Origin: a virus
Lineage: Duplodnaviria > Heunggongvirae > Uroviricota > Caudoviricetes
Length of the DNA stretch: 23,862 bases
Virus record (IMG/VR): IMGVR_UViG_2778261619_000009
Reading direction: 5' to 3' (one strand)
Under the pieces are notes generated by a model. The model ran no database searches. It was not told the origin of the DNA and saw only the letters and a list, made by a program, of their open reading frames with translations. Positions 9,567-18,814 of the stretch are shown piece by piece. Made by a program: the position numbers and the translations under genes. How positions within the stretch are numbered: the first letter of the stretch is position 1; each line of letters starts with the position of its first letter.

Positions 9567-11333
9567 ATGAACACCACACTGACACCCGCAGATCTCGATC
9601 CCCGTCGGCAGGCCATGCTGCTGTACTTTCAGGGATACCGCGTAGCCCGCATTGCTGAAATGCTGGGCGAGAAAGTTGCAACCGTTCACAGCTGGAAAAA
9701 ACGCGACAAGTGGGGTGACTATGGGCCGCTGGATCAGATGCAGCTCACCACCGCCGCACGCTACTGCCAGCTCATCATGAAGGAGCACAAAGAAGGGAAA
9801 GATTTCAAAGAGATTGACCTGCTGGCGCGCCAGTCTGAGCGCCACGCGCGGATCGGCAAGTTTAACAATGGCGGCAACGAAGCCGACTTAAACCCTAACG
9901 TCGCCAACCGCAACAAAGGCCCACGCCGTCAGCCTGAAAAGAATGTTTTCACCGATGAACAAATTGAGAAGCTGGAAGAAATTTTCCATTCCTCCATGTT
10001 TAACTACCAGCGCCACTGGTGGGAAGCCGGAAAAACCAACCGCATCCGCAACCTGCTAAAGTCACGCCAGATCGGCGCGACCTTCTATTTTGCCCGTGAG
10101 GCCCTGATTGACGCCCTGCTTACCGGACGTAACCAGATTTTCCTTTCTGCCAGTAAGGCACAGGCTCACGTCTTTAAGCAGTACATCATCGATTTCGCCA
10201 AAGAAGTCGAGGTGGAGCTGAAAGGTGATCCGATGGTGCTTCCTAACGGGGCCACGCTTTACTTCCTCGGCACCAATGCCCGCACGGCCCAGAGTTACCA
10301 CGGCAACCTGTATCTGGATGAATATTTCTGGATACCGAAATTCCAGGAGCTGCGCAAAGTGGCTTCCGGTATGGCTATTCACAAAAAATGGCGACAGACC
10401 TATTTTTCCACGCCATCCAGCCTGACACACAGTGCTTATCCGTTCTGGTCCGGTGCGCTGTTCAACCGAGGGCGCAACAAAGCCGATAAGGTGGACATCG
10501 ACCTGTCCCACAGCAATCTGGCCCCCGGCCTGCTGTGCGCAGACGGGCAGTACCGCCAGATAGTCACTGTGGAAGATGCGGTGCGCGGCGGATGTAACCT
10601 GTTCGACCTTGACCAGTTGCGCATGGAGTACAGCCCGGACGAATACCAGAATCTGCTGATGTGTGAGTTCGTGGACGATCTCGCGTCCGTATTCCCGCTC
10701 AGCGAGCTGCAGGCGTGCATGGTAGACAGCTGGGAAGTCTGGACCGACTTTCATGCACTGGCGCTGCGCCCGTTTGGCTGGCGCGAAGTGTGGATCGGTT
10801 ATGACCCGGCAAAAGGTACGCAAAACGGCGACAGCGCCGGATGCGTGGTGGTGGCACCGCCAGCCGTGCCGGGTGGTAAGTTCCGCATTCTTGAGCGTCA
10901 CCAGTGGCGCGGGATGGACTTCCGCGCCCAGGCTGACGCCATCAAAAAACTGACCGAACAGTACAACGTGACATACATCGGTATCGACTCAACCGGCGTC
11001 GGTCACGGGGTTTACGAGAACGTGAAAGCGTTTTTTCCTGCCGTCCGGGAGTTTGTCTACAACCCCAACGTTAAAAACGCCCTGGTACTCAAGGCCTACG
11101 ACATTATTAGCCACCGCCGCCTGGAGTTTGACGCCGGGCACACCGACATTGCGCAGTCATTCATGGCAATCCGTCGCGCCACCACCGCCAGTGGCAACCG
11201 CCCAACCTATGAAGCCAGCCGCAGCGAAGAAGCCAGCCACGCAGATTTGGCCTGGGCAACGATGCACGCACTGTTTAACGAACCGCTGCAGGGCGAAGCC
11301 GCCAATACCAGCAACATTGTGGAGATTTTCTGA
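9567..11333 (+). CDS. P: Terminase large (ATPase) subunit (P2 gpP-like)
   Basis: 588-aa ORF; deviant Walker A (LLKSRQIGAT), Walker B (LYLDEYFW), C-terminal nuclease-like domain; size as P2 P (~590 aa). Confidence 0.9.
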   Translation: MNTTLTPADLDPRRQAMLLYFQGYRVARIAEMLGEKVATVHSWKKRDKWGDYGPLDQMQLTTAARYCQLIMKEHKEGKDFKEIDLLARQSERHARIGKFNNGGNEADLNPNVANRNKGPRRQPEKNVFTDEQIEKLEEIFHSSMFNYQRHWWEAGKTNRIRNLLKSRQIGATFYFAREALIDALLTGRNQIFLSASKAQAHVFKQYIIDFAKEVEVELKGDPMVLPNGATLYFLGTNARTAQSYHGNLYLDEYFWIPKFQELRKVASGMAIHKKWRQTYFSTPSSLTHSAYPFWSGALFNRGRNKADKVDIDLSHSNLAPGLLCADGQYRQIVTVEDAVRGGCNLFDLDQLRMEYSPDEYQNLLMCEFVDDLASVFPLSELQACMVDSWEVWTDFHALALRPFGWREVWIGYDPAKGTQNGDSAGCVVVAPPAVPGGKFRILERHQWRGMDFRAQADAIKKLTEQYNVTYIGIDSTGVGHGVYENVKAFFPAVREFVYNPNVKNALVLKAYDIISHRRLEFDAGHTDIAQSFMAIRRATTASGNRPTYEASRSEEASHADLAWATMHALFNEPLQGEAANTSNIVEIF

Positions 11334-12058
11334 TGCACTCAACCCCAACTAACCTCATGACCACCGCCAGCCTGCCTGTAGATCGCCCTTTCTTTGCTTA
11401 CCAGCATGAATGGAACAGTGGCGCACGCAGCAGAAACCGCGTGCTTACAAAAATGCGTCAGGCTGGCGCGGATTTCTTTTTCGCCTACGAAGCCCTGAAC
11501 GATGCACTGCACACCGGACGCAACCAGATTTTTCTGGGCTGCACCCCGGCATCAGCCCTGACCGTCAAAACCTATATATCAGCTTTTTTAAGTGAGGCAG
11601 CAGCCTGGACGCATCTTGGGAAAATAAAATCAGGTAAAGCGCATCTGGAACTCCCAAACGGTGCGGTCATTTATTTTATCGGGCCGGAAAGTCTCGCTGC
11701 CGCGCTCCATGGAAACGTCTACGTGTCAGAGTATGCCTGGGCTGACTCCCCCAAAAATATGATTGCGCTCGCCAAAAGCCTGTCCATGCACGCGCGCTAT
11801 CACGCTACCTACTACACCACCCCAAGCCCCAGCCCGGAAGCATGGCAGGAATACAAGAATCTGATCGCCCGCAACAGCACTACCTGCATGACCTTTACCG
11901 CTGATGACGCTGCAGCATCCGGGGCTACGCTCGCAACCGGAGCCGCGCTCTTTGATGATGAATGGCTGAATGACATGAAAAAAGAATTATCACCGGAGGA
12001 CTGGAAAATGCTGTTTATGTGCGAATGGCCCCAGGCTGACAAGGAGCAGGCGGCATGA
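11333..12058 (+). CDS. Truncated, degenerate paralogue of the terminase ATPase domain (extra gene between P and Q)
   Basis: 241-aa ORF; ATG overlaps the P stop (TGATG) and its stop overlaps the Q start (ATGA). Aligns by eye to P residues ~140-370 (FFFAYEALNDALHTGRNQIFL vs FYFAREALIDALLTGRNQIFL; LPNGAVIYFIG vs LPNGATLYFLG) with Walker A/B positions altered (KMRQAGAD, VYVSEY). Confidence 0.6.
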   Translation: MHSTPTNLMTTASLPVDRPFFAYQHEWNSGARSRNRVLTKMRQAGADFFFAYEALNDALHTGRNQIFLGCTPASALTVKTYISAFLSEAAAWTHLGKIKSGKAHLELPNGAVIYFIGPESLAAALHGNVYVSEYAWADSPKNMIALAKSLSMHARYHATYYTTPSPSPEAWQEYKNLIARNSTTCMTFTADDAAASGATLATGAALFDDEWLNDMKKELSPEDWKMLFMCEWPQADKEQAA

Positions 12059-13095
12059 GCAAACGTAAAAACAAGAACAACCGCGCAGCGGTGGATCACA
12101 ACGCAGAATCTGGCGGCGCTGCGGCAGAGGCGTTTAGCTTTGGCGACCCGGTGCCGGTGTTAGACCGACGCGAATTGCTGGACTACGTGGAATGCGTGCA
12201 GATGGACCGCTGGTATGAGCCGCCGGTGAGCTTTGACGGACTGGCGCGGACCTATCGCGCTGCCGTGCATCACAGTTCACCAATTGCGGTGAAATGCAAC
12301 ATTCTGACCAGTACCTACATCCCTCACCCGCTGCTCAGCCAGCAGGCTTTTTCACGTTTTGTGCAGGACTATCTGGTATTTGGTAACGCCTACCTGGAGA
12401 AACGCACGAACCGCTTCGGTGAAGTTATCGCCCTTGAGCCTGCTCTGGCAAAATACACCCGACGCGGGTTAGACCTGGATACCTACTGGTTTGTGCAATA
12501 CGGTATGACAACCCAGCCGTATCAGTTCACGAAAGGCAGCATTTTTCATCTGATGGAACCGGACATCAACCAGGAGATCTACGGCCTGCCCGGTTATCTT
12601 TCTGCCATTCCGTCAGCCCTGCTCAACGAGTCCGCCACGCTGTTCCGCCGTAAGTATTACATCAACGGCAGCCATGCAGGCTTCATCATGTATATGACCG
12701 ATGCCGCGCAGAACCAGGAGGATGTGAACAACCTCCGCAACGCGATGAAAAGCGCCAAAGGCCCTGGCAACTTCCGCAATCTGTTTATGTACTCGCCTAA
12801 CGGCAAAAAGGACGGACTTCAGATTATCCCGTTGTCAGAAGTCGCAGCGAAGGATGAGTTTCTGAATATCAAGAACGTGAGCCGTGATGACATGATGGCT
12901 GCGCACCGCGTGCCGCCGCAAATGATGGGGATTATGCCTAATAATGTCGGGGGATTTGGTGATGTGGAAAAGGCCAGCAAAGTCTTTGTCCGAAACGAGC
13001 TAATTCCGCTACAGAAGCGGCTGCAAGAACTTAACCAATGGGTTGGTGAAGAGGTAGCTCGCTTTGAATCATATTGTCTAGAACCAAGGGAATAA
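12055..13095 (+). CDS. Q: Portal protein (P2 gpQ-like)
   Basis: 346-aa ORF; FSFGDPVPVLDRRELLDYVEC, ESATLFRRKYYINGSHAGFIMY and KVFVRNELIPLQ match my recollection of P2 gpQ (344 aa). Confidence 0.9.
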   Translation: MSKRKNKNNRAAVDHNAESGGAAAEAFSFGDPVPVLDRRELLDYVECVQMDRWYEPPVSFDGLARTYRAAVHHSSPIAVKCNILTSTYIPHPLLSQQAFSRFVQDYLVFGNAYLEKRTNRFGEVIALEPALAKYTRRGLDLDTYWFVQYGMTTQPYQFTKGSIFHLMEPDINQEIYGLPGYLSAIPSALLNESATLFRRKYYINGSHAGFIMYMTDAAQNQEDVNNLRNAMKSAKGPGNFRNLFMYSPNGKKDGLQIIPLSEVAAKDEFLNIKNVSRDDMMAAHRVPPQMMGIMPNNVGGFGDVEKASKVFVRNELIPLQKRLQELNQWVGEEVARFESYCLEPRE

Positions 13096-13097
13096 AT

Positions 13098-13133
13098 GTA
13101 CTGTTTGTTCAAATTGAACACACAGTACTTTTT
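13098..13133. terminator. Bidirectional intrinsic terminator hairpin between convergent Q and cargo ORF C
   Basis: 15-nt inverted-repeat arms gtactgtttgttcaa / ttgaacacacagtac (14 of 15 paired, 2-nt loop) followed by TTTTT on the plus strand and ATTTATT on the minus strand. Confidence 0.6.
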
Positions 13134-13139
13134 AATATA

Positions 13140-13979
13140 TTAGATGGCTGGGTTGATGTAATCACCCACGTCATCACCTTGTAGACTAATGTACTCAACC
13201 CGCCACTGGTCCATTCGCCGTAACGCATACAGACTGAATTCAACGTCAGGAACTGCGTTACAAGACATAAGCGCAATGAGTTCACTTTCAGACGCATCAC
13301 CATGGTACGTTACAAAGAACTCTTCAATTTGTGTTGCCGCCTGCTCTGCCTCTGCTCTTGCATCCGGCCCACCATCTATAGAATCATAGACAAGATGAAT
13401 ATTCAGTTCGTAAGGTACACCTTCCTCTAAATCATTGAAACGATCTTCGCCTAAATCAAAGAATATACCTATCAAATAGACTGAATGTTTGCTAATTATC
13501 TTTGCGAGTTCTTTTTCGAATCTAAATTTCTTTGTGTCGAAAGCTCTTAGCCTACTCTCAAAAACATCAGGAAAGGCAGGTCGCCCATAGCGGGCAGCAA
13601 GCCATTGTTTTAAACCTTGCTTTTCCTCAGGGGATATTTGGCAAGTAGGGTCACATCCCACACACGTGAAACGTTCTTTATCAATACGAAATTTGTTGTC
13701 ATGTCTTAGTTCAATTGCATTTTGATTCGCGTCACGCGCTTGCTCTAAATGCAAATGCAGAACTCTGGGATGTTTAGCACGTGCATAATTGCTGGCCCCC
13801 TTAATGAGAGGGCCAGCAATAAGCTCAACGCTGGGTTCAGAAGAGCTTTGCAAGTCACAATCATGACTGATCACGACAACTTTAACGCCTATTTCCTCTT
13901 CGGTAAGAATACCCAAAGAAACCGCATCCTCATGCCTAAGAACCTGGCCTTGGCGCCATGCTGTAGCAATATCAACCAT
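13140..13979 (-). CDS. Cargo protein C, 279 aa, unknown function (contains HDC...CVGCDPTC cysteine cluster)
   Basis: ATG at 13979, 10 nt after the ORF B stop; AT-rich codon usage unlike flanking phage genes; no recognisable family motif by eye. Confidence 0.7.
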   Translation of the reverse strand: MVDIATAWRQGQVLRHEDAVSLGILTEEEIGVKVVVISHDCDLQSSSEPSVELIAGPLIKGASNYARAKHPRVLHLHLEQARDANQNAIELRHDNKFRIDKERFTCVGCDPTCQISPEEKQGLKQWLAARYGRPAFPDVFESRLRAFDTKKFRFEKELAKIISKHSVYLIGIFFDLGEDRFNDLEEGVPYELNIHLVYDSIDGGPDARAEAEQAATQIEEFFVTYHGDASESELIALMSCNAVPDVEFSLYALRRMDQWRVEYISLQGDDVGDYINPAI

Positions 13980-13989
13980 AAATGACTAT

Positions 13990-14631
13990 CTACTCCTTCA
14001 TTCCTGAACCAGGTATAGAAACAGACGACATCCACCCGTCAGTTGGCGTGCTTTTGCTCCCAGTTAAATTCGCTTTTACACCTGCAATTTTAAGCTGGCG
14101 AGCTTCATCGATTAAGAGATTCACAGACGACTTCCAGTCATCGCCTCGCTTAATCAAATCAATAATAGATAAGCCGTCAAACGCTTTCATTTTTGACATC
14201 AACTTAGCATTTTCTACTCCTGCTTTGTTAAAGCGATCGGCTAATCTACTGAGTTCAATGATGTAACCAGCTTTCCCAATATCATCAGGCTGACTGTCAC
14301 CGGATAACCATTTGTATAATGCTTGCCTAGTAATACCCAAATCTTTAGCCAGTTCTGACATTGATGGAGAAAGAGTATCCCTAACATTACTTAAATGTTC
14401 TGAAATTGTCCTGATATCAACAGGGTCATTATCTGTATCCCCATGATTTTCAAGTTTAGATAACCCAAAATGGACTTTAGGTTGTACAAAACCACGCCAC
14501 TGGTTTACATCCTTCACAGAATAGCTCGCTCCTGTTCCACTCAGGAACATAGAGGTTGCAACAAATAACGCTCCAGCAATAGGAGCTAAACCAGGAGTCC
14601 CATAGCAACTACCAGTCATGGATTGACGCAT
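13990..14631 (-). CDS. Cargo protein B, ~213 aa: N-terminal hydrophobic segment plus XRE/Cro-type helix-turn-helix
   Basis: Track ORF starts at GTG 14658; trimmed to ATG 14631 preceded by GGGGAGGTG. Hydrophobic stretch LAPIAGALFVATSMFL (residues ~15-30) and HTH SMSELAKDLGITRQALYKWLSG (residues ~90-110). Confidence 0.7.
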   Translation of the reverse strand: MRQSMTGSCYGTPGLAPIAGALFVATSMFLSGTGASYSVKDVNQWRGFVQPKVHFGLSKLENHGDTDNDPVDIRTISEHLSNVRDTLSPSMSELAKDLGITRQALYKWLSGDSQPDDIGKAGYIIELSRLADRFNKAGVENAKLMSKMKAFDGLSIIDLIKRGDDWKSSVNLLIDEARQLKIAGVKANLTGSKSTPTDGWMSSVSIPGSGMKE

Positions 14632-14648
14632 ATTACACCTCCCCGGTG

Positions 14649-15455
14649 TTATACCCACCTATTAATGGCATGTTGGGATACCATTTTATTAAAGCTTTCC
14701 TTTACAACACCATGTAGTGAATTGAACTGTTGCTCAATTGAATCTATTTCTGGCGGCATGTTTCCTTCAACATAATGGTCTGTATCAATAATTCCATGCC
14801 AAAGAGCCTTGTCGCTCCTGAACCGCTCAAGCATTTCAACCCCAAAGGGCAAGATATCTGGAGGAAAACTCAACTGACCAAACATCTTATGCAAACGAGT
14901 TACTAAAAAGCCAGTACTTATAACAGGACCAACATTTGTTTGGAAAACCATCTCGTTAACCGATTGTATCGGAGATAAATCCAAATCTACACCATGTAAG
15001 CCATTGCAAAGGTACTGCTCAATCTTTTCACCCTCACTAGGTATTACGGCATCCAGATACCTCAAACCAAGTCTTGTCAAAAGGGCTGGGTTAGCATGTT
15101 CTATTACGACAGACAATCCTTCCATCAATGCTTTAAAGAACGGTTCATGTTCTTTGTAATCAGTCGTCTGGAAAGTAATAAAATCGTTACCCAAGACAAA
15201 ACCTGAAGTCTTAGTGATGTCAGACATATACCACTGCTGGACCATTTCAAAAGATGGCTGAGGCGATTCACCGGGCGTATTAACATCAAACACCATTTGC
15301 ATTGCCTCTCTTCTTTCAAAGAGTGGATAGCCCCTTAAACGCAATGCTTCCTGAATGTCATCGACATACTTTTTCATCGCCTTGATAGGCGTAAACTTAA
15401 CTTGCGCCAGCACATAGTATACGGGTGCATTGGACATGCGATTGCTGTCACTCAT
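14649..15455 (-). CDS. Cargo protein A, 268 aa, unknown function
   Basis: ATG at 15455 preceded by AGGAGGG (spacing 4); AT-rich; first gene of the three-gene operon. No nucleotide-binding or nuclease motif recognised. Confidence 0.7.
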   Translation of the reverse strand: MSDSNRMSNAPVYYVLAQVKFTPIKAMKKYVDDIQEALRLRGYPLFERREAMQMVFDVNTPGESPQPSFEMVQQWYMSDITKTSGFVLGNDFITFQTTDYKEHEPFFKALMEGLSVVIEHANPALLTRLGLRYLDAVIPSEGEKIEQYLCNGLHGVDLDLSPIQSVNEMVFQTNVGPVISTGFLVTRLHKMFGQLSFPPDILPFGVEMLERFRSDKALWHGIIDTDHYVEGNMPPEIDSIEQQFNSLHGVVKESFNKMVSQHAINRWV

Positions 15456-15570
15456 GTCGCCCTCCTAATTTTAAAATCCATCAATAACGTTCTTTTCAAT
15501 ATAGTTTACATCTTGGTTGACACATTAACCATAACAAAGTTCCATCAAAACATCTTTTGATAACTTTATA
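15456..15570 (-). promoter_or_regulatory. AT-rich leader/promoter region of the cargo operon
   Basis: ~115 bp AT-rich sequence between the cos-like site and the ORF A start, with a TAAAAT -10-like hexamer on the minus strand and a strong SD; exact promoter not resolved. Confidence 0.3.
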
Positions 15571-15589
15571 TTTAAACTACCGGGCGCGC

Positions 15590-15608
15590 GCTCGTATCCC
15601 CGCCACGC
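15590..15608. other. cos: Candidate cos (cohesive-end) site of the prophage
   Basis: Minus-strand reading GGCGTGGCGGGGATACGAG within a short GC-rich island in an otherwise AT-rich intergenic region. From memory the P2/186 19-nt cohesive ends begin GGCGAGG/GGCGTGGCGGGGAAAGCA..., so the first 13 nt match 186; location is the expected A-to-Q interval. Confidence 0.5.
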
Positions 15609-15653
15609 CTGCCCGCTTTATGTAGTGGTTTTCATGCACCTGCATGATCTACG

Positions 15654-15677
15654 CAAAAGCCCGCCAGTTCTGGCGGG
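15654..15677 (-). terminator. Intrinsic terminator of the SOS-regulated small-ORF/DinI-like operon
   Basis: GC-rich hairpin gcccgccag / ctggcgggc; on the minus strand it is followed by UUUUG, ~135 nt downstream of the DinI-like stop. Confidence 0.6.
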
Positions 15678-15813
15678 CCTTAGCAAAAACGATCCTCAAA
15701 CGATCATGCGATCTCATGCGGCATAGACATGCACTACAGAGCTAACGCCTCGCAAGGACTCGTTGTTCAACCTTGCTGACGCCAGAAGCAAGTTCAGACG
15801 CCAGCAACGTTTC

Positions 15814-16047
15814 TTAATGCAGCCAGCTGTCGTCTTCCCACACCTTCTGCATAATTTTCATCACTTGTTTTCTTTCTTCGTCCTGTTGCAGCCCGGTCAG
15901 TTCCACACCGTTAGAGCTACCTTTGCGGATACGAATTACCGTTTTGGGATACAGGGGGCGCAGATTGCGGTAAAGCTCGGATTCAAGGGCGTCCAGGGTA
16001 GACTGGCTAATCTTCTGCTCTTTATCGATCATTATTTCAATGCGCAT
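15814..16047 (-). CDS. dinI: DinI-family protein (DNA-damage-inducible protein I-like)
   Basis: Track ORF 15814..16119 trimmed to ATG 16047 (MRIEIMIDKEQ...DALESELYRNL...VWEDDSWL), 77 aa, GAGGTG SD; closely resembles E. coli DinI (MRIEVTIAK...DALAGEL...). Confidence 0.8.
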   Translation of the reverse strand: MRIEIMIDKEQKISQSTLDALESELYRNLRPLYPKTVIRIRKGSSNGVELTGLQQDEERKQVMKIMQKVWEDDSWLH

Positions 16048-16057
16048 AAAAGTCACC

Positions 16058-16246
16058 TCAGCTGATGACATCCATTGAGCGGTTGTATTCGTGGCTTCTG
16101 ATTTTTGCCATGAGTTCATCAGTCAATTCAGAAACCCACTGCAGAGCCAGCCCCTTCTCTTCATCACTACACTCACTAGCCGCTACAAGCTTAAGAAAAA
16201 AATCAATGCGCTGGAGCTTCAAAGACTCCAAAAAAAAGTCCTGCAT
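16058..16246 (-). CDS. Small SOS-regulated protein (62 aa), first gene after the LexA box; possible Tum-like antirepressor fragment
   Basis: ATG at 16246 with perfect AGGAGG SD; track ORF 16058..16348 is a 5' extension that would run through the LexA box. Function inferred only from position. Confidence 0.5.
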   Translation of the reverse strand: MQDFFLESLKLQRIDFFLKLVAASECSDEEKGLALQWVSELTDELMAKIRSHEYNRSMDVIS

Positions 16247-16287
16247 CTTTCCTCCTATGACACCACAAGCAATACTGTATACATAAC

Positions 16288-16307
16288 CACTGTTTATAAT
16301 TACAGTA
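16288..16307. promoter_or_regulatory. LexA operator (SOS box) overlapping the promoter of the small-ORF/DinI-like operon
   Basis: cactgtttataattacagta = CTGT-N8-ACAG with AT-rich spacer, ~40 bp upstream of the small ORF; -35-like TTTACA (minus strand, 16325..16330) and a TATACT -10-like hexamer overlap the box. Confidence 0.7.
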
Positions 16308-16399
16308 TATAATAATCTTACTGATGTAAAACGTTTTTTTACGTTCATCAGCCTAATATGCCTGGTATTATTAAGAGCACGAATTGTTAACCTGCGTAA

Positions 16400-18814
16400 T
16401 CAATACAGGTTCCGCCACTTATCATCTTCCTGCAAACGCTGGTTCCGATAGAAGATACGCAGGCCTGCTCCTGACGGAATACTGCCGCCGCGAATGAGTA
16501 AATCGACCTCTTTCTCGCTGCCATCAAATCCTCTGGACTTCAGTTCATAGACGAGCTGCTGTCGTTGATGGTCAGTAATTCGCTGTTTGTAGTCTCTACG
16601 CCGTTTCGGTTTCACCAGGCGTAACCTTGCAGCCAGTTCCCGGCGCTCTTTTTTGTTCATACTGTGCAGGTAATCGTGCAACTCCTTGTCATCCATGCGG
16701 GTGATATCCGTTCTGGTATCCCCATCAGCTGATTTGTCTTTCCCTTGTTGGTACAAATTTTCAGCAAGGGGACAGTTATTGCCACGAGTCCAAGGGGCGC
16801 AAGCGCCCTGGTCGGCTGCCGCCTCCTGAACGTCAACGGCCTTACGAACCATTTTCCACTTCACGGCATGAGTGCAGATCTTGCCCTCTGCAATAGGTGA
16901 CCAGATGCCATAAATACGAATGCCGTGATCGCCATAGGCGGTCGGCTCTTCGTTGATTTCATAAGCAGTTCTGATGAGGTGATATTTGCGGGGAACCAGT
17001 ACGCCACCCTGCTTCATGATGTAGGTGGCAAAACAACCAGCATCAGCAGCAGCCAGAATGGCATCAAGGCGCGGGTTATCCAGTACCGGCGCACCTGCTT
17101 TTTTGTCCCCCTGTTGCCTTGCCGCCTGACCAGCCAGCAATCGCAGTTCACGGTAAGCCTGACGCCCCGGAATGCCAAAGAAGCGGAATTGCTGAACACG
17201 ATGCAGAGACGCCCAGGCATTAACGTATTCAGCATTATCACGCAGGGATTTCCCCGTTTCCTTGCTGATCTCGCCAGCCAGACCACGACCGTCAATGTTC
17301 TTACTGATATATTTCGCGATGTAGCTTGTCGGCGTTCCTTTGCGCGGGTTAATCAACTCAGACTTAAAGCGCGGCCCAGTGTTATTGCCCAGCTCCTCGC
17401 GGTCTTCACGGATGGCAAACTTACGCAGTAATGCAGTAATGGCACGGCGGTCTTTTTTGCGCATGAAACACAACAGGTGCCAGTGAACTGTGCCGTCATG
17501 ATGCGGCTCAGCCACCCGCACGCCATACCAGCGCAACCCGGCTTTGTGCATCGCCTTACGAAATGCAGCAAACATGCCGACCAGATAATCGCTGCTTTGT
17601 CTTACCGTCGCGTTTGTCCAGGTCGGGTTTGGTCTGCCGTTATTTAGCGTGGAATGGAAACGCGACGGACAGGTGATAGTGTAGAAAACGGCGCAGTCAC
17701 CGCGCATTTCCGCGATAAGCTCCAGACCTTTAACACAGGCCATCATCTCATTGCGGCGATGCGCAGGGTTGCTGCTGCTGGCGTTTACCACATCCTCCAT
17801 GTCCAGCGTGTCGCCGTCTTCGTTCACCAGTTCATGAGAACGGAAAAACTCCAGCGACTTACGGCGCTGCTCACGTTTATGCATCACGGCTTCATAGCTG
17901 ACATAGGGAGATGCTTTTTTGCTGACCAGACAGACAGCACGTAACTGCTCTTCCCGCCATTCGCAACGCATCTTCCATAATTTCCGATACCACCAGTCGG
18001 CGCACAGCATACGCGCCAGCGAACCCGGAATGAGTTCATAGGGCACAGGTTTGCGGCGGTTTCTTTTCCGGCGGAGTTGCTCAAACGCAGGCGGTATGAC
18101 ATCCAGTCGCAGGGTTTCTGCTGCCACCTTTTCCCATGTCTTGCGGATTTCTTCCGGCTTAACATCATCGGAGGCGTACAAATCACCACAAGCGGCATCA
18201 AGACACATGCTCATATGCGCAGCGACAAGGGTGGACAGGCGTTTCACCTGATCCTGACTCATTTCAGGCAGGATCAGCAGACCGTCCAGCCCTTCATGGC
18301 TTGCCATAAAACGAAAAGATGCAGATAGCTGGCTGTCGCGTACATGCTCCAGTCGTTCCAGGCATGGCTTAATCGTCTCACGCAAATAGCGGGAATAAGC
18401 CTTTGGCCTGCCCAGGTTGCTGAAGTATTTAATACGTTGCATCAGCGGCTTGCTGATATGGGAAGGCTGGGCGTTGACATCCGCCAGAATGACCATGTCC
18501 GGATTAAAACGCTGCTGCTCATGCGCCAGCTTTGCCCGGCTAATTAGCTTATCCTGCTCCATTTCGCGCTGGACAGGATCACGGGATTCATTAAAGAAAT
18601 AACGCTCCCAGACCTGATCACTCAGTGCCTCGCGGCGCAGTTGTTCCTGCTCGTTATCGGCAGCGTACAAAGTGATCAGGTTTGAAAGCGCAGAAACCGG
18701 CGCAACTTCCGCCGGGTCCAGATAAGGGTTAATGGCCTTTTTCGGGCTGTTCCATGAGAATGCTGCGGCAGCCTCGTTAAAGCCGCAGCAGTTGTTCATA
18801 TCGGCATGACTCAT
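16400..18814 (-). CDS. A: Replication initiation endonuclease, rolling-circle type (P2 gpA-like)
   Basis: 804-aa ORF, ATG at 18814 (ATGA overlap with dam stop); histidine motif GTVHWHLL and tyrosine active-site pair in [11 protein letters not shown], typical of P2 A-family initiators. Confidence 0.9.

Follow-up and report, generated by a model that had tools for sequence, protein, structure and literature searches.

A putative toxin-like effector with a predicted MazF-like barrel in the three-gene operon A-B-C of a P2-like prophage

MazF/PemK/Kid, CcdB and the type III toxins ToxN, AbiQ and CptN have in common the fold that is also predicted for the N-terminal domain of protein C, the subject of this study. 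A MazF-like fold has likewise been predicted for GajC, the presumed effector of the experimentally validated anti-phage system type II Gabija (Liu-DS1; PMC13069673); the family of this protein is unknown, but it is a useful precedent, as it places a MazF-like effector in a validated defence system. With respect to gene order, Xre-RES, MbcA-MbcT and ParS-ParT resemble the locus described here in that the gene of an HTH protein lies directly upstream of a presumed toxin gene, and a third protein tied to an antitoxin-like protein is found in tripartite toxin-antitoxins such as TAC with its SecB-like chaperone and type VII systems such as MntA-HepT, in which an enzyme modifies the toxin. With respect to location, experiments have established the A-to-Q interval of P2-like phages as an anti-phage hotspot (PMC9122126), and Rst_3HP ('hp+hp+hp'), a set of three hypothetical genes from this hotspot, protects against phage P1 (Rousset et al. 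2022, PMC9122126).

The locus analysed here comprises the genes A, B and C on the minus strand of a P2-like prophage, referred to below as the window, i.e. the whole stretch of 23,862 nucleotides. Compared with the MazF group, C has no detectable sequence-profile relationship and carries an HDCD/E/E/R set of its own; at 279 aa, it includes an extra α/β domain and a tail; and its partner is an XRE HTH protein, not MazE (AbrB-type) or an RNA repeat, with a third gene present. GajC differs in its split MazF-like domain and its GajB helicase partner, and is accompanied by neither a TIGR04255 nor an HTH protein; no homology between GajC and C is claimed. Rst_3HP shares with ABC the A-Q hotspot of P2-like prophages and the make-up of three hypothetical genes, but its proteins (335, 355 and 228 aa) contain no HDCD or HTH and are encoded on the other side of cos from ABC. 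Identity of ABC with Rst_3HP was rejected, the proteins being unrelated in a by-eye comparison with the table in PMC9122126. B (WP_130055671) and C (WP_042104940) appear in Table S5A of the same study as untested 'hypothetical' cargo (PMC9122126), and ABC fills one 'hypothetical' entry of the P2-hotspot catalogue.

With a probability of roughly 0.5, we regard C as the terminal toxin-like effector of a conserved, horizontally mobile operon A-B-C, carried here as accessory cargo between cos and the portal gene. If ABC is a defence or toxin-antitoxin system, C would represent a new type of effector, in which a MazF-fold barrel bears another invariant active-site-like motif, and the operon would offer the first functional handle on the orphan TIGR04255 family.

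Gene C and its protein family

Gene C occupies positions 13140..13979 on the minus strand (stop codon 13140-13142) and encodes 279 aa. Its start is the first possible ATG, and homologues begin at the same methionine in the alignment. The protein is acidic (pI 4.89; 48 D+E versus 30 K+R) and contains five cysteines, C41, C106, C109, C113 and C240. The segments ISHDCDL and FTCVGCDPTCQ, from which a first-pass annotation of the window had proposed a metal site, span residues 37-43 and 104-114, respectively. The sequence-level statements of that annotation on C, the reading frame among them, all proved correct; the HDC and the three cluster cysteines that it listed are present, and C240 had escaped it. 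The weak Shine-Dalgarno-like element that it had named, GGAG, was read directly at 13993-13996 (minus strand), within the last codons of B and 13 nt upstream of the ATG at 13979, and C begins 10 nt after the stop codon of B. Coupling of C to translation of B had been suggested on this basis; the B-C gap in 80 related loci, usually 10-18 nt, supports the suggestion, and C is probably coupled in this way. As had also been noted, C is the last of three co-directional cassette genes. Its designation as a plausible effector is likewise supported, and we regard C as a putative effector of the cargo cassette.

A word-index search for homologues of C returned 326 sequences, and an exhaustive profile search 2134 clusters (50% identity, E<=1e-3), with 1,484 at E<=1e-10; nearly all are 260-290 aa in length and have a single architecture. 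Searches of C against Pfam, NCBIfam and PADLOC gave no match. For 39 diverse members, no Pfam family was matched, PF02452 included, and PADLOC-DB v2.0.0, which includes the Rousset, Vassallo, Millman and PDC candidates, yielded nothing credible, the two stray Cas3b matches stemming from one member at E 0.002 or weaker. A profile search of C against PDB sequences produced chance matches only. The only library family to recognise the C family was phrog_34320 (PHROGs v4), which was matched by 33 of the 39 members (best E 6e-15) and is without functional annotation; the match covers most of the length of the window protein, which itself scores just E 0.016. Literature searches for the HDCD motif and for TIGR04255 found no paper. 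Judged by sequence, C belongs to a large uncharacterised protein family, with more than 2,000 clusters, the same three-gene operon in many phyla and in P2-like prophages, and no annotation in Pfam, NCBIfam or PADLOC.

The three-gene operon across genomes

For the comparison of loci, genomes were scanned at one per species, which gave 165 relatives of C, and 80 loci were fetched. They span Proteobacteria, Nitrospirota, Chloroflexota, Chlamydiota, Verrucomicrobiota, Omnitrophota, Acidobacteriota, Gemmatimonadota and Actinomycetota. At all 80 loci, tblastn placed relatives of the three proteins in the order A, B, C on one strand; the B-C gap is usually 10-18 nt long, and genes A and B either overlap or are no more than ~25 nt apart. 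With B an HTH_3 protein encoded immediately upstream of C and in the same direction, the arrangement is that of a type II toxin-antitoxin locus. More distant triads start with TIGR04255 proteins 29-31% identical to A, followed by a gene of ~205-211 aa and, where the contig permits, by one of ~280 aa, whose product is a member of the C family (hhalign probability 100%, 30% identity); a triad from Acinetobacter is organised in the same way.

In eight of these loci (L018, L026, L027, L031, L033, L034, L040 and L070; about 3900-7083 in L018 coordinates), a ~3.2-kb segment that comprises just A-B-C is ~94-97% identical between genera of Beta- and Gammaproteobacteria, with differing flanks, which points to a recent horizontal transfer that moved the module as a whole. 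Many chromosomal ABC loci have housekeeping neighbours; this analysis of neighbours is qualitative, because the crude ORF caller performed poorly on high-GC flanks. Such neighbourhoods agree with a plain addiction or stabilisation module, or a regulatory prophage moron, with no role in phage defence, as do the toxin-antitoxin-like architecture and the presence of stability genes such as StbA/Plasmid_stab_B in P2 hotspots; we nevertheless rate this explanation as rather unlikely.

Several loci depart from the common layout. Three Arenicellales loci have A and B as a single fused ORF of 420-433 aa (L069, 4727-5989; L073 and L074, 4664-5965), from which the 'GTGSxY' segment found N-terminally in free B proteins is missing. 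A gap between B and C occurs in only two loci, L047 (1733-6000) and L080 (3688-6024), and is due to mobile-element insertions at the junction. One insertion is an IS66 element into which a group II intron reverse transcriptase has in turn inserted, and the other an IS607-like MerR-resolvase element; in L047, B and C both appear truncated. A further record (L092; CAKLQF020000006.1, 207 kb), labelled 'Acinetobacter phage MD-2021a', carries a distant ABC triad beside OmpA-like genes and a DGQHR-domain gene, and looks less like a phage genome than like a bacterial chromosome containing a prophage.

Conserved residues and predicted fold of C

Conservation was counted over 129 aligned members of the C family, down to 28% identity. 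The motif H39-D40-C41-D42 (codons 13854..13865, minus strand), located where strand 32-36 ends and a short helix begins, is essentially invariant, with H39 and D40 retained in 128/129 and C41 and D42 in 129/129. Further conserved residues of the N-terminal part are Q10 (129/129), E52 (128/129), R72 (129/129) and E48. W126, L127, Y131 and R133 are each found in all 129 sequences, and R130 is near-invariant (108 R, 20 K). Towards the C-terminus, conservation extends to F174-D175 in the C-terminal domain, to C240 (Cys in 127/129) and to W259 (126/129), R260 (115/129) and S265 (127/129) in the tail. H39, C41, D42, R72 and C240 are immediate targets for mutagenesis.

The cysteine cluster C106-V-G-C109-D-P-T-C113 (codons 13641..13664, minus strand) behaves differently. 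Cysteine is kept at position 106 in 18, at position 109 in 13 and at position 113 in 2 of the 129 sequences; all three are kept only in the window protein and in one protein 85% identical to it, and position 113 is normally F, Y or L. When the composition of C is shuffled, ~1.5% of the shuffles have three cysteines within eight residues, so the cluster is mildly unusual and not striking. The proposal that H39/C41 join with C106, C109 and C113 in a Cys4/His metal centre, which would be the functional core of the effector, draws on the presence of these residues in the window protein and on a chance probability of ~0.015 for their clustering, but the conservation counts and the placement of the segment in a variable loop largely refute it, and we consider it very improbable. 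Because HDCD is conserved and the cluster cysteines are not, the HDC...CxxCxxxC site of the first-pass annotation is not a feature of the family. As far as the alignment goes, the CxxCxxxC cluster is a lineage-specific, local accident with no conserved role, and a metal or catalytic site of C, if there is one, must be built from the conserved set H39-D42, Q10, E48, E52, R72 and C240.

In a rival reading, C would be a Cys-His hydrolase or protease with C41 as nucleophile at a helix N-terminus and H39 as base, cutting B, A or a phage protein as a switch. Both residues are invariant, the motif immediately follows a strand and opens a short helix, and the conserved C-terminal tail of B could be the substrate; even so, we judge this improbable. 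Readings of the motifs as PD-(D/E)xK, Toprim, NTase or Cys-phosphatase were rejected by reasoning on motif order and predicted fold, both of which are unsuitable.

A structural model of C was computed with AlphaFold2 from 92 sequences (mean pLDDT 82, pTM 0.52). The N-terminal domain (13632..13979, minus strand; ~residues 1-116) is predicted as a β-barrel of the MazF/Kid/CcdB fold with strands 32-36, 50-59, 73-77, 88-92 and 96-100, and runs on into helix 117-131. It is followed by a C-terminal α/β domain (13209..13631, minus strand; residues 117-257), whose α/β part comprises residues 138-254 in the model, and by a tail (13143..13208, minus strand; residues 258-279) with pLDDT <50, predicted to be disordered and yet conserved. 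The C-terminal domain does not show the combination of hG[GS], followed by DxD on the next strand, with a clear fold match that would be expected of a minimal nucleotidyltransferase (MNT/pol-beta NTase). Structure prediction and fold comparison had been recommended in the first-pass annotation, which had named non-conserved cysteines combined with the fold of a known housekeeping protein as the outcome that would speak against its proposal. The cluster cysteines are indeed not conserved, but the fold match is to the MazF toxin family and not to a housekeeping protein.

The predicted structure has the SH3-like β-barrel and C-terminal helix of the PemK/MazF fold, but C does not match the profile PF02452 (CcdB/MazF superfamily). 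In hhalign, C was aligned to B. subtilis MazF with a probability of 0.35%, and the profile of its N-terminal domain to a five-sequence MazF/Kid/ChpBK alignment with a probability of 0.3%. This small alignment was used since a homologue search with B. subtilis MazF gave only sequences of at least 94% identity. When the alignment is forced, which makes it weak and provisional, it is collinear with the motifs matched by eye: HDCD falls after strand 2, at the 'ND' of MazF, with C41-D42 as a two-residue insert. In the same weak and provisional alignment, the catalytic Arg (R25 in B. subtilis, R29 in E. coli) and Thr (T48/T52) of MazF are absent from C, falling on K33 and ~L58, and inspection of the family alignment showed that these positions vary. 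C is consequently not a demonstrable member of PemK/MazF, sharing with it the predicted fold and neither the profile nor the catalytic residues. What the model shows is a predicted MazF/CcdB-fold barrel with an invariant polar set of its own (Q10, H39-D42, E48, E52 and R72); the strand topology suggests that one end of the barrel brings together Q10, H39-D42, E48 and E52. Cleavage of RNA by C would be an analogy with MazF only, the canonical catalytic residues being missing.

Partner genes and prophage setting

Gene B (13990..14658, minus strand) encodes an XRE-type HTH protein of 213 aa when started at the ATG at 14631, as in RefSeq, or of 222 aa from the GTG at 14658. It matches Pfam HTH_3 with E=6e-5 and, more weakly, antitoxin-type HTH families; its profile match to the antitoxin MbcA is marginal (E 0.055), and a search against PADLOC gave weak generic HTH matches only. 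Conserved segments in the alignment are an N-terminal 'GTGSxY...W', the stretch 'LLKMKAFxGxSLxDL' and a C-terminal tail 'DWxSSxSIPGS'. An N-terminal transmembrane helix in B was considered and rejected, as the hydrophobic residues in question lack conservation in the alignment. Conserved short tails end both B (13990-14050, 'DWxSSxSIPGS') and C (13143-13208, 'DQWRVEYISL'; both minus strand), and may be docking peptides within a complex.

Gene A (14649..15455, minus strand; 268 aa) encodes a protein of the TIGR04255 family (NCBIfam, 161 bits with a cut-off of 30, E 3.9e-47), a match that extends to the A proteins of the distant triads. Neither A nor any of 58 members of its family matched PADLOC-DB v2.0.0, and in the supplements of DefensePredictor TIGR04255 occurs only in a table of protein names. 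Conserved Arg, Asp and Glu residues of A lie at alternating positions on the strands of a guanidino-kinase/TBP-like sheet; as alternate residues of a strand share a face, they may form a site for a nucleotide, or for phosphate and metal. In a rival assignment of roles, A would be the catalytic or toxic part, a guanidino-kinase/GS-like enzyme acting on a target by phosphorylation or ligation, and C a non-toxic sensor, adaptor or substrate, for example a MazF/CcdB-fold module that binds a phage molecule or is modified by A, as in type VII systems. By sequence, however, the profile of A found no kinase or ligase in the PDB, and TBP scores nearly as high as the kinases. The A-B fusions speak against A as a toxin released from B, though fused toxin-antitoxins exist, and the invariant Cys/His/acid cluster of C looks more like chemistry than binding. 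This assignment is, in our estimate, unlikely.

In the favoured reading, with C as the toxin-like effector, B would act as a type II antitoxin-like regulator or adaptor that keeps C inactive, the translation of the two being coupled, and A, bound to B, would sense infection or enzymatically modulate the complex. Phage infection or loss of the element would upset this balance, upon which C would be freed and growth arrested; the outcome could be abortive infection, addiction or both, most probably so in prophages. Most speculatively, the target of C might be RNA or a different nucleic acid, attacked by a site that centres on HDCD and possibly depends on metal. A bolder version, which we put forward only tentatively, is that ABC is a new and widespread three-component anti-phage (abortive-infection) system, with a MazF barrel bearing a new catalytic or metal centre at HDCD and with A as a guanidino-kinase-like enzyme or nucleotide sensor that acts via the HTH adaptor. 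Were it true, effector chemistry and sensor type would both be unlike those of any described defence system; new chemistry and a new sensor in ABC are a real possibility.

Within the prophage, positions 13100-15500 match E. coli NZ_CP106929 with 99.8% identity, the sole near-identical copy among 5,426 complete E. coli genomes. The GC content drops from 52-56% to 40-44% in the cassette, compared with 52-60% for the backbone. On one side, it is bounded by the portal gene Q (12055..13095, plus strand; as annotated by RefSeq in the 99.8%-identical locus), which is convergent with C across a 44-nt spacer and marks the boundary of the cargo. On the other side, the cos-like sequence GGCGTGGCGGGGATACGAGCGCGC is found at 15586..15609 (minus strand), ~130 nt upstream of gene A. 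The motif was compared with the P2 and E1114 cos regions, on the basis of the cos sequence of P2/186. P2-like loci that carry an ABC variant (L002-L004, L006, L083 and L087-L090) have a cos-like GGCGTGGCGGGG[AC]TACGA ~130-180 nt upstream of A in every case. This position of the motif places the cassette between cos and the portal gene. P2 old/tin and Rst_3HP are situated on the replication-gene side of cos, and the P2 'hotspot' seems to comprise two sub-sites.

Beyond cos lie a GC-rich hairpin with a T-run (~15655-15679, minus strand), which, as read from the sequence, resembles an intrinsic terminator, then a small ORF and a DinI-like gene (15814-16119, minus strand), and replication gene A (16400-18814, minus strand). 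The presumed promoter region of cassette gene A contains a perfect 7-bp inverted repeat, ATCAAAA-N4-TTTTGAT, at 15544-15561; it is not conserved in related loci and may therefore be due to chance, and no conserved operator was found upstream of A. A type III toxin-antitoxin of the ToxIN/AbiQ/CptIN kind was rejected, since neither tandem repeats nor Rfam families were detected in 12900-16400.

On the far side of the portal gene, the window has an extra ORF of 241 aa (11333-12058, plus strand) between the terminase gene P (9567-11333) and Q, overlapping both at the junctions. Its product matches Pfam Terminase_6N (E 1.2e-14) as a paralogue of the terminase's N-terminal half, the ATPase, with 'KMRQAGAD' where gpP has 'KSRQIGAT'. 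The ORF is missing from the otherwise near-identical prophage of NZ_CP106929, in which P and Q abut, and occurs in only a few phages, namely Yersinia phage vB_YpM_MLG42 (94.6%) and Escherichia phage 500465-1 (88%). It could serve as a decoy, have an anti-satellite function or mark a second cargo slot.
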